This document shows, in pieces, positions 60,356 to 64,000 of a stretch of DNA of 64,000 nt (its first letter is position 1; each line of letters begins with the position of its first letter). The translations under genes and the position numbers were made by a program. This stretch comes from a virus, in the IMG/VR virus record IMGVR_UViG_3300030328_002122, positions 32,001 to 96,000 of that record, one strand, 5' to 3'. The notes below the pieces were generated by a model. The model ran no database searches. It saw only the letters and a list, made by a program, of their open reading frames with translations, and was not told the DNA's origin.

Positions 60356-63300
60356 ATGGGAAAATCAAGAGATAGAGCTAATCGTTCTGGAAGTGATCCA
60401 GTAAATATCGGCACAACAAGGTTGGCTGTTGATTCTGGTAATGTAAAAGTCACTGCTCAAGATGGTACAACATTTAAAAAGATTTTTGCAGAAGAAGTGC
60501 AAGTAGGGGTTGGTAATAATAGAGTTATACTTAAAAGAGGTTCAGATGGAAAAGCTGAGTTTCAATCTACAGCTGATGGTGGTGGTTCAACAACAAATTT
60601 AACAGTAGGTGGTTCTAGTACTGTAACTAATCCTTCCGATTTACCCATTACTGGAAATCAAGCTGGTGATACAATATTGGTAACATCAAATAATAATTTG
60701 ATGATCTACAATGGTTCTGGTTGGTACAAAATAGCTACCATAACTAATGCAACACCTACAATATCATCAGCTGGAAATGCGAGTTATACTTTTGCTACAG
60801 ATGGTACTCCAGTAAGTATCGAAATTACAGCATCTGATCCAGAGGGTGTTGCATTACAATATAAGTATCAAGTCACAACTGGTTCTCTTGGAAGTACAGC
60901 TGCTGTAACAAATAGTGCAACATCTGGTGGAACTTATAGTGCATTAGCCGCCAATACCTATAGTAATAATAGATTTTTTAAAGTGACGCCCAGCACAAAT
61001 AGTGCTCATGCTGGTGCATTCGCAATCACATTTTCTGTAACTGATGGTGTTAATACTGCTAATTCAAGTGCATCTTCATTTACTTTGGCATTTGAGGTTT
61101 CTGGTTCATTGAGATTTGATGGTACTGGAGATTATATAACTGTTCCAAGTTCTACTAATCTCCAATTAGGATCATCAAACTTTACAGTAGAATTTTGGTT
61201 GTATTTACCTGTAGCAATTGCTAGTAATTATCAAATTTATATTGGAAAAGGGCATAATGCTGATAGCAGTAGAGAATGGTATTTAGAGGGTATGTCTGAT
61301 GGAAAAATTGATTTATTTTGGTCAACTAATGGCGGTGGTTGGAGTAGTGCTGAAGTAACTGGAGTTTTACCTATAAGGACATGGCATCATATCGTTATGC
61401 AAAGAACAGGAAGTACTTTAAAGGTATATACAAACGGCAACGAATCATATGTTAATAGTTCTTTTCCAACTATTCATTCGGGCAGTCAAATATTAAACAT
61501 TGGCGGGTTCAATGATGGAAGTGGACTATATTCAAATAGTTTTATGTCAAATGTAAGACTTATAAAAGGTTCTAATGCTTATACTACAACTGGTGGATCT
61601 ATTAATCTTACTCCATCAAATGCAAATGTTTCTCTTGCCACAGATGCTGATTATTTGATAGGTAGTAGTGAAGATTTTACAATTGAAGCTTGGGTTTATA
61701 CACCTTCAAGTTTTGCATTAAATAATGCTAAGTGGAGAACAGTTTATTTTTGTGGTACTAATGGTGCATTACAAATTGCATATGATACAGCTGGAAAACC
61801 TGTTTTTTATTCTGGAGGCAATATTATTCTTGCTACTACTGCTTCAACGGCATCAACTTGGGAACATATAGCTTTTACTAGAACTGGTTCTTCTATGGTA
61901 TTTTATCGAAATGGTGTCGCTGATGGTACAGCTACAAATAATGCAGCACATGGTGCAAATACTAATGCACATTATATTGGTGCTTATAGTGGAACTGAAG
62001 GTGGTCTTGGTGGTTATATATCTAATTTTAGATTTGTTGTAGGTACAGGTGTATATACTGGTGCTTTTACTCCACCTCATGCTTTAACAACTAGTGGTGG
62101 AACTTATGCTTCTACTGCAAACGTAAATACATCATTTACAGCTTCACATACTATGATATTAACTGGACAAAGTTCATCTTCAGTAACAGACGCAAGCCAG
62201 AAAAATGAAACTTTAACACTAGGAAGCAGTGCAGCTGCAGCTGCAAATAGTCCATTTATTACAGTACCAACTGAACCAATAAGTGCTATATCAAATACTA
62301 TGTTATTAGTAGGAACTGAAAAAGAATCAGTTGCTGTTACAGATGGTGCATATAGTTTTGATGCAGTTACATCAAGATTAAAAACTCCAGATTCTTCAAG
62401 TGGTGCTTATAATCTTCCTGCTGATACACCAATGACACTTGAAATGTGGTATTATATGAGAGCCACTCCAGCTAATTCTGTATATCTTTGGTCATTACAC
62501 GATTATCAAGTTCATATGACTTATTATAGTAGTTATAGTAGTCACAATCAACCTCATATGCAACTTTATCTTGGTAAAGGTGGTTCTACTAGATTGTATG
62601 GTAATGGAAATACAGGCACTTCTCTTAATACTTGGTATCATGTTGCTGTAACTAGAAATTCGAGCAATGTTTGGAATATGTATATTGATGGCGTAAAACA
62701 AACACTTGGTGCTGGTGGTGGAGCTGGTGGTTCACAAATAACTAATAATAGTGGTTGGACAGGAGCATCTGAAGCTGCAAGAATAGGAATAAATTGTTAT
62801 CCAGTAGTTTCTAGTGCTTCTTGGGCTGTAAATTCTGGTATGAATGGAGCTCTTTCAGATATAAGATGGGTCGTAGGAACTTGTGTTTATTCTGATAGTT
62901 TTACTCCACCTTCAGGCCCATTAACAAAAACTGGTGGAACTTATCCATCAAATACAAATATCAATACATCTATAACATCTTCTCACACTAAAATGTTAAC
63001 TGCACAGAGTAGTGGTGTTGCTGGTGGTTTAGAATTTACTGGTAGTGGTGAAACTACTACTGCAAGTCATGCTGGTTTTGATTTTGGATCTAATGATTTT
63101 ACTGTAGAATTTTGGTACAAATGGAAAGATAATAGTGGGTATCAAACTCTCATAGATCAATATTATCATGTGGGGGCTCGTCATTTTTTACTTCAAGCTA
63201 ATACTAGTACAACTAAATGGGGAGTATTTATAAATCAGACTCATATTGGAAGTGCTTATGAATCATCAGATGCTACTATAGGTATATGGCATCATTATGC

Positions 63301-64000
63301 TATAGTAAGAAATGGTAGTGCGTTTAAGATGTATAGAGATGGCGTAGAAACTATATCTGCTACTGTTTCTGGATCATTAAGTGGAACAGAAGTTACAAAA
63401 TTTAATCATGCATCACATACCACTTCTGGATCAGTTAGTAATTTACGAGTGGTAAAGGGTACAGCTGTGTACACAAGTGCTGGTTTTACATTACCAACTG
63501 GTAATTTAACTGCAATAAGTGGAACATCTTTATTGTTATTCCAAGAAAATAGTGGAACAACATTAGATGATGGTAGTACAAATAATGTTACTATAACAAA
63601 ACATAGTGGTCATAATATTATAACTGGTGGTGGCCCATATTATTGGAAAGATAATAGTGATAGTGGTTTTAGATTATCTGCATCTGGTGCTGGAAATGCT
63701 ACTAAAACAACTGGTGTAACATACCCTTCAAAAGATATAAGCACACAAAATAATTCATTATCTTTTAAAGGAGATACATCACACAGCTTTGCAACTCCAT
63801 TTAGTGATGGTGGTGGTGGATCTACATTGTTTTGTGCTACTCAGACACTTGGCGGTAATCATTCGGGGCATTATGCTGATGCTCCAGATAGTGCCCAATT
63901 TAGTATGGGTACTGGTGATTTTACTATTGAGGGTTGGGTATATCCTTATGATCAACAACATAATCGAGGATTTTGGGCTTTAAGTACTACTGCTGCTGAC
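60356..64000 (+). CDS. LamG multi-module fibre protein, paralog 4, 3'-truncated (>1215 aa), absent from the ORF track
   Basis: MGKSRDRANRSGSDPVNIGTT...; segments I translated stay in frame through ...FTIEGWVYPYDQQHNRGFWALSTTAAD at the window end. Confidence 0.85.
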   Translation, partial: MGKSRDRANRSGSDPVNIGTTRLAVDSGNVKVTAQDGTTFKKIFAEEVQVGVGNNRVILKRGSDGKAEFQSTADGGGSTTNLTVGGSSTVTNPSDLPITGNQAGDTILVTSNNNLMIYNGSGWYKIATITNATPTISSAGNASYTFATDGTPVSIEITASDPEGVALQYKYQVTTGSLGSTAAVTNSATSGGTYSALAANTYSNNRFFKVTPSTNSAHAGAFAITFSVTDGVNTANSSASSFTLAFEVSGSLRFDGTGDYITVPSSTNLQLGSSNFTVEFWLYLPVAIASNYQIYIGKGHNADSSREWYLEGMSDGKIDLFWSTNGGGWSSAEVTGVLPIRTWHHIVMQRTGSTLKVYTNGNESYVNSSFPTIHSGSQILNIGGFNDGSGLYSNSFMSNVRLIKGSNAYTTTGGSINLTPSNANVSLATDADYLIGSSEDFTIEAWVYTPSSFALNNAKWRTVYFCGTNGALQIAYDTAGKPVFYSGGNIILATTASTASTWEHIAFTRTGSSMVFYRNGVADGTATNNAAHGANTNAHYIGAYSGTEGGLGGYISNFRFVVGTGVYTGAFTPPHALTTSGGTYASTANVNTSFTASHTMILTGQSSSSVTDASQKNETLTLGSSAAAAANSPFITVPTEPISAISNTMLLVGTEKESVAVTDGAYSFDAVTSRLKTPDSSSGAYNLPADTPMTLEMWYYMRATPANSVYLWSLHDYQVHMTYYSSYSSHNQPHMQLYLGKGGSTRLYGNGNTGTSLNTWYHVAVTRNSSNVWNMYIDGVKQTLGAGGGAGGSQITNNSGWTGASEAARIGINCYPVVSSASWAVNSGMNGALSDIRWVVGTCVYSDSFTPPSGPLTKTGGTYPSNTNINTSITSSHTKMLTAQSSGVAGGLEFTGSGETTTASHAGFDFGSNDFTVEFWYKWKDNSGYQTLIDQYYHVGARHFLLQANTSTTKWGVFINQTHIGSAYESSDATIGIWHHYAIVRNGSAFKMYRDGVETISATVSGSLSGTEVTKFNHASHTTSGSVSNLRVVKGTAVYTSAGFTLPTGNLTAISGTSLLLFQENSGTTLDDGSTNNVTITKHSGHNIITGGGPYYWKDNSDSGFRLSASGAGNATKTTGVTYPSKDISTQNNSLSFKGDTSHSFATPFSDGGGGSTLFCATQTLGGNHSGHYADAPDSAQFSMGTGDFTIEGWVYPYDQQHNRGFWALSTTAAD

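Follow-up and report, generated by a model that had tools for sequence, protein, structure and literature searches.

Probable insertion of laminin G-like modules within one another in a candidate host-binding protein from a T4-like marine myovirus

Insertion of one protein domain into another is common and nested cases have been catalogued. The sialidase of Vibrio cholerae carries a lectin-like jelly roll inserted in its β-propeller catalytic domain, an arrangement that is heterotypic and has a single level. Recursive nesting of one fold has been described for the Si3 insertion of the β′ subunit of cyanobacterial RNA polymerase, which reaches up to six levels (PMC13114784) and consists of HABAS/SBHM domains (PMC11515920); thus, the principle is not new. 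Here, we describe a family of laminin G-like (LamG) proteins from a marine T4-like myovirus in which modules of one fold appear to be inserted into copies of themselves. The analysed stretch of DNA (the window) is 64,000 nucleotides long and comprises bases 32001–96000 of a 145,194-bp virus record (IMG/VR record IMGVR_UViG_3300030328_002122) with an estimated completeness of 95%. The open reading frame (ORF) that starts at position 60356 continues past the last base of the window and terminates 480 nucleotides further on in the record, at window-equivalent position 64480; the complete protein, P0004, has 1374 residues (the codon of each residue starts at window nucleotide 60356 + 3 × [residue − 1]). 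The C-terminal 1130 residues of P0004 are likely to form five LamG/pentraxin jelly rolls that are joined by insertion and not in tandem.

The family would resemble nested domain insertions (A1-B1-C-B2-A2), Si3 above all, in that one fold recurs within its own copies at several levels and each split host folds as a unit. It differs from Si3 in its fold (a LamG/pentraxin jelly roll as opposed to a sandwich-barrel hybrid), in its setting (a phage structural protein as opposed to an enzyme), in having two defined sockets that both lie between the last three strands of the domain and in a layout that differs markedly from one paralog or relative to the next, the cassettes being found at different positions. 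The same domain and PHROG families occur in cyanophage and bacterial proteins with tandem Laminin_G_3 (PF13385) or concanavalin A-like domains, and the cyanophage homologs (25–32% identity) are annotated as baseplate or virion structural proteins. Unlike the tandem proteins, the modules of the present family are interrupted by other modules, whereas its distant homologs mostly parse as tandem arrays in which the closing strands are poorly detected. Fold and strand order are those of the pentraxins and LG/LNS domains (CRP, SAP, PTX3, neurexin, laminin LG and the LamG domain of PAPP-A), which match the predicted models with Z scores of 16–20 over ∼185–199 residues at a root-mean-square deviation (r.m.s.d.) of 2.5–3 Å; however, the sequence identity is 9–17% and the matched structures are contiguous (e.g. 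CRP residues 5..206). Our literature search on nested or inserted LamG domains in phages found no description, and Laminin_G and concanavalin are without mention in the supplementary text of PMC13114784. A sequence search of the PDB with one module gave nothing useful, and a profile search returned only distant LamG and toxin-HCN domains, over the core. A preliminary description of this DNA had named no known case of recursive nesting in phage adhesins; this stands for phage adhesins and for LamG as far as we found, but not for the principle, and what appears to be new is the insertion of LamG into LamG and its setting in a phage adhesin.

Three elements make up a module: a core of ∼160 residues with the motifs S..FDG, FT.E.W, W.H.A and SN.R.V.G..Y, which is the portion covered by Pfam Laminin_G_3; the T.LL strand (t) with the motif P..PLTAI.NT.LL; and the closing strand (d) with the motif D.S...H.T..G....PF. 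In the full module the T.LL and D.S..T..G..PF strands would complete the sandwich that the core begins. Loop i lies between the last core strand and t, and loop ii between t and d; each may take in a whole extra module. Laminin_G_3 matches the window part of P0004 in four stretches with 186.7 bits (cut-off 27.6) and two of its paralogs with 234.8 and 130.2 bits, and the Pfam matches on these proteins are solely to Laminin_G_3 and related LamG models. Since the closing strands lie outside the Pfam model, domain annotation would miss such nesting. The elements of P0004 are listed here as located by motifs and by separate hidden Markov models (HMMs) of the core, t and d (termed tll and ds for the two strands), which were built from ten uninterrupted modules only, the host modules being outside the training set.

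61097..61585 (residues 248–410), + strand: core of A; core HMM E = 4.9e-25; contains the best Laminin_G_3 stretch (255–402) and stops after the last core strand.
61589..62257 (residues 412–634), + strand: B, complete, assigned to loop i of A; core E = 6e-43, tll E = 2e-6, ds E = 9e-10.
62261..62311 (residues 636–652), + strand: tA, orphan T.LL strand; VPT.P..AI.NT.LL is kept; tll HMM E = 0.38, refined 0.004.
62342..62893 (residues 663–846), + strand: core of C, assigned to loop ii of A and also a putative host; core HMM E = 7e-15.
62900..63001 (residues 849–882), + strand: tC, with a long GGTYPSNTN loop; tll HMM E = 4.6e-8.
63020..63640 (residues 889–1095), + strand: D, complete, assigned to loop ii of C; predicted pentraxin-like fold, with AlphaFold2 (AF2) predicted local distance difference test (pLDDT) values mostly of 80–90.
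63641..63727 (residues 1096–1124), + strand: dC, orphan closing strand; best matches are the closing strands of module 3 of P0047 and P0009.
63728..63802 (residues 1125–1149), + strand: dA, orphan closing strand ending in ATPF; ds HMM E = 0.06.
63815..64000 in the window (residues 1154–1374), + strand: E, uninterrupted; core E = 6e-55, tll E = 3.6e-10, ds E = 1e-11.

The order is thus A-core, B (core, t, d), tA, C-core, tC, D (core, t, d), dC, dA and E (core, t, d), with three closing strands, those of D, C and A, in succession before the complete E. In the proposed arrangement A would be host both to B (loop i) and to C (loop ii), C would in turn take up D in its own loop ii, and E would be an ordinary module; the closing strands are then expected to return as D, C, A. 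Both the layout A[B][C[D]]E and the last-in-first-out order of the closing strands had been read from the letters in the preliminary description and are recovered by the motif and HMM scans; its coordinates for B (61592–62257) and D (63017–63640) agree with ours to within 3 nucleotides. B ends in SPF and its core scores 745 against module 4 of the homolog P0008, its closest relative, while the A[B]tA block is ∼61–69% identical to the C-terminal unit of the same protein. tA lines up with t1/t4 of the homologs and dA with d1. C is 46–48% identical to module 3 of P0009 and P0047, tC is 71% identical to P0009 residues 827–878, and D shares 79% of its residues with module 5 of P0006 and 57–79% with modules at other positions of homologs. 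dC has local scores of 60 and 53 against closing strands of the family, which were matched by none of 1000 background windows. E lies mostly beyond the window and is closest to P0011 module 4, P0084 module 2 and P0005 module 3.

The same elements recur, in different layouts, in three paralogs encoded in the window, with which P0004 shares its N-terminal region.

56174..60325, + strand: P0002, 1383 aa; layout 1[2][3] 4[5]; nesting is seen in its predicted model.
53262..56141, + strand: P0003, 959 aa; layout 1, 2[3], with the insert in loop ii.
6773..9607, + strand: P0005, 944 aa; layout 1, 2[3], with the insert in loop i.
60356..61096, + strand: N-terminal region of P0004, 247 aa, non-LamG; it also starts P0002, P0003 and P0005.

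By motif and HMM scans the element order is 1[2]t1[3]d1, 4[5]t4 d4 in P0002, 1, 2 t2[3]d2 in P0003 and 1, 2[3]t2 d2 in P0005. Cores, t strands and d strands are equal in number in all four proteins, the order fits the nesting grammar in all four, and the LamG part of each opens with a core and closes with t and d. Under a crude null of randomly ordered elements, 273 of the 756,756 orders of 5+5+5 elements satisfy this grammar. The orphan t and d strands keep the whole linker motif of uninterrupted modules and are picked up in the unseen hosts by the element HMMs, not only for tA and dA (values above) but also for t1 (E = 1e-3) and d4 (E = 1.5e-5) of P0002; dC of P0004, d1 of P0002 and d2 of P0003 are weak by this measure.

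Balanced parses extend to the wider family. Of 30 close metagenome homologs (>30% identity), 22 parse as perfectly balanced nests and the inserts are confined to the two loops, 41 at loop i and 29 at loop ii, which bears out the earlier claim of two fixed insertion loops. The remainder comprise truncated ORFs, proteins in which weak strands escaped detection and three that are truly unusual (P0026, P0115 and P0010). Parsing of this kind with split HMMs had been suggested as a check on the last-in-first-out order; at 25–30% identity the parse is unreliable for the closing strands, which are poorly detected. Relatives with and without an insert at the same loop also occur: the last modules are found as "(t)" and "((t)t)", and the first units both as "((t)t)" and "((t)t(t))" among families. 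Residues 899–1545 of P0010 (1954 aa) parse as a second three-level nest of another shape, in which the module in loop i of the host carries a further one in its own loop ii; the outermost T.LL strand escaped detection.

The orphan closing strands resemble those of the relatives of the cores to which the nested order assigns them. For dD the nearest strand is the one that closes module 5 of P0006, the same module that is closest to core D. For dC the nearest strands close module 3 of P0047 and of P0009, and these modules are likewise those closest to core C; dA is nearest to the outer closing strands (d1) of the 1[2][3]-type hosts P0013, P0018, P0023 and P0111. The contiguous module 3 of P0009 aligns to P0004 residues 656–886, skips 212 residues that correspond to D and resumes at 1099–1120 with 45% identity. 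Across 189 pairs from 20 hosts, which are non-independent, so that no probability is attached, the similarity of outer closing strands correlates with that of their own host cores, hundreds of residues away on the N-terminal side, with a Spearman coefficient of 0.67, compared with 0.24 for the adjacent downstream core and 0.29 for the adjacent inner upstream core. The majority-residue fraction is 0.61–0.85 in the orphan strands and 0.51–0.61 in the cores.

An AF2 model of P0002 residues 250–1383, calculated from a collinear 21-row alignment of orthologs with the same element order, has a mean pLDDT of 71.5. Single-domain chains of 172–217 residues (CRP, SAP, PTX3, perlecan LG3 and agrin G2) and the LamG domain of PAPP-A match this model over 150–198 aligned residues with an r.m.s.d. 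of 2.5–3.3 Å and Z scores of 12.9–19.8. Their matches cover two long ranges of the model: 681..1134, corresponding to core 4, t4 and d4 and skipping the 224-residue module 5, and 4/9..672–678, corresponding to core 1, t1 and d1 and skipping modules 2 and 3. The inserted domains are also matched alone, within the host ranges, at 175..399 (module 2) and 853/857..1074 (module 5). Since ∼190 residues superpose on one 200-residue domain at 2.5 Å, they must form one compact unit, and since the pentraxin is matched in N- to C-terminal order, the strand order is the standard one with t and d as the last two strands. Both t4 and d4 are predicted as confident strands (pLDDT 71–89). Thus, in the model the host domains of P0002 are discontinuous in sequence yet each is one compact fold. 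The chain of V. cholerae sialidase (1w0o), itself a case of an inserted jelly roll, aligns to the model over 175..645.

No collinear homolog of P0004 was present among the homologs compared, and MAFFT alignments of the whole protein either piled all homologous modules onto D or placed the inner closing strand of the homologs under dD, which would bias the topology; hence, the segment 655–1126 (C, tC, D and dC) was modelled instead, from a collinear alignment of 15 rows. Model residues 234..441 (residues 888–1095, i.e. D) match the LamG domain of PAPP-A and the pentraxins with Z scores of 16–19.7 over 182–199 residues at an r.m.s.d. of 2.6–3.2 Å. As a calibration, the contiguous D spans ∼208 residues for ∼185 aligned. 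In this model D forms an unbroken, complete domain with tD and dD as its own last strands and lies wholly between tC and dC, which leaves dC and dA for other cores. The predicted complex of A[B]tA with a 38-residue dA peptide had a median score of 0.14 relative to a mark of 0.32 and counts neither way. With D the only confidently folded part, C of low confidence and the docking without a verdict, the third level of nesting, which P0004 apparently has, rests on sequence evidence. The nested fold of the preliminary description is supported by the P0002 model (hosts 4..678 and 681..1134); the closures of A and C in P0004 are inferred from element order and strand pairing.

The nested arrangement is the best supported reading, and all three rivals that we considered are weakened by the paralog model, the completeness of D and the cognate pairing of the closing strands. 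The simplest rival is a string of beads, with five contiguous tandem cores and with the coreless T.LL and D.S pieces as linkers or degenerate remnants of recombination; we judge this to be very unlikely. Several observations weigh against nesting, some of them in favor of such a string. By the element HMMs dC is below significance. In the P0004 model the pLDDT stays below 50 in dC and in a large part of C, and this model is therefore silent on their pairing; for the outer closing strand d1 of P0002 the pLDDT is 31–58, so that closure at loop ii is less secure than closure at loop i. The structural comparisons (VIA-align) give only the first and last aligned residue, and the topology was read from these ranges. 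Three of the 22 perfect parses include a weak closing strand added by eye, and in P0010 one T.LL strand is undetected. P0115, with one surplus T.LL strand, and P0026 depart from a strict grammar. P0026 (937 aa, on one ENA contig) is P0013-like with host core 1 (P0013 residues 250–405) cleanly deleted and t1 and d1 retained; either orphan strands can persist without a core, as in a natural 'unnested' variant, or the contig is defective through misassembly. As beads on a string, however, cores A and C would each be short of the last two strands of the sandwich, which complete modules such as D (residues 888–1095) need to match whole pentraxin folds; the host domains of the P0002 model take in their distant strands, and the orphan strands are conserved as much as the cores or more and co-vary with their own distant core.

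Phage fibres are often trimers, and strands might be exchanged between fibre subunits or within the chain out of the last-in-first-out order, e.g. with dD closing C and dC closing D. The closing strands are homologous and seem interchangeable, the element counts alone do not distinguish the pairings, and core A and dA are of different host types ('module 4' and 'module 1', respectively). Such a swap is nevertheless unlikely, given that dD and dC are nearest to the closing strands of the relatives of their own cores, that D, with its own tD and dD, is confidently predicted as a single unbroken domain up to residue 1095 and that the ranges of the P0002 model are properly nested. In many bacterial LamG_3 proteins a similar D.S.G..G motif stands just before S..FDG, which would fit a shifted register, i.e. 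a tandem array in another phase in which T.LL and D.S are the first strands of the next module. This reading was rejected as extremely improbable: each paralog starts with a core that lacks a prior T.LL/D.S and ends with T.LL and D.S that lack a later core, core, T.LL and D.S follow the order in which they are matched by pentraxin residues 5..206, domain 4 of the P0002 model starts at 679–683, after the end of d1 at 677, and the similarity of outer closing strands is poorly reflected in that of the next core (0.24). A module circularly permuted relative to standard LamG was also considered and dropped, as pentraxins align from the N- to the C-terminus onto the core, T.LL and D.S.

P0004 is a mosaic, with the closest relatives of its modules scattered over different proteins and positions. 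The single closest relative of core A is module 4 of P0006, a 'module 4'-type host, while dA is nearest to 'module 1'-type hosts. A conserved D-type cassette is found in different sockets across proteins (the position of B, the module 5 position and first after the N-terminus), which suggests that it has been exchanged between sockets. Modules appear to act as cassettes that are moved between sockets by recombination. We offer only as a tentative proposal that the two loops are universal sockets between which modules hop by recombination, so that a phage lineage could build tree-shaped adhesins combinatorially. Many of the inserted modules (among B, C and modules 2, 3 and 5 of P0002) have an extra loop of ∼16 residues (GGTYPSNTNVNTSIP) before T.LL, the start of which (PLTKTGGTY) is paired by MAFFT with PLTAI.NT of the short-loop modules, as in a partial duplication of the element.

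The window has a G+C content of ∼28–37% and nearly all of its long ORFs are on one strand. Its T4-type genes include those of the large terminase, tail sheath, portal, scaffold, major head protein and neck proteins. The DNA polymerase (36442–38955) is 77.7% identical to that of Melnitz, a myophage of OM43 (Methylophilales) and the nearest cultured relative found for this protein, and ∼55% identical to those of cyanomyophages; in a comparison of the polymerase with a phage collection, no Melnitz record was among the matches listed, all of which were below 60% identity. The identical P0004 protein sequence is recorded on 11 contigs. P0003 and P0002 lie directly upstream of P0004, and P0005, the fourth paralog, lies apart at 6773–9607, with neighbors at 3511–6759 and 9628–11226. 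Two genes that match tail-fibre or baseplate-connector PHROGs come just before it, and the neck genes (head–tail adaptor and head closure) follow directly. In T4 this position is that of fibritin (wac). By this analogy the non-LamG N-terminus of ∼245 residues common to the four paralogs, which presumably attaches the protein to the virion, might be a neck or collar attachment domain; this shared region of ∼250 residues matched no PHROG family. The region in which P0005 lies is the one termed a 'host recognition cluster' in a study of pelagimyophages (PMC7029224). The families matched in PHROG carry the labels baseplate wedge subunit or virion structural protein, and P0004 is probably a virion-associated, host-binding protein.

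The LamG part of P0004 would form a branched cluster of lectin-like domains, with a putative role in binding glycans of the host surface. Should the nesting prove real, these abundant proteins of marine phages would be rigid branched clusters of this kind and not flexible chains, and their reach, valency and host range would have to be modelled differently. Annotation by profiles takes an interrupted domain for a simple tandem repeat, so that such architectures would be overlooked at scale. The two sockets appear to be natural, repeatedly used insertion sites in a widespread fold and could guide the engineering of LamG scaffolds and of the receptor-binding proteins of phages. The family would be the second natural example of recursive self-insertion after Si3 of RNA polymerase, and one that offers many variants for the study of folding. 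If modules do hop between sockets, this would be a route to the diversification of receptor-binding proteins that is distinct from tandem shuffling.

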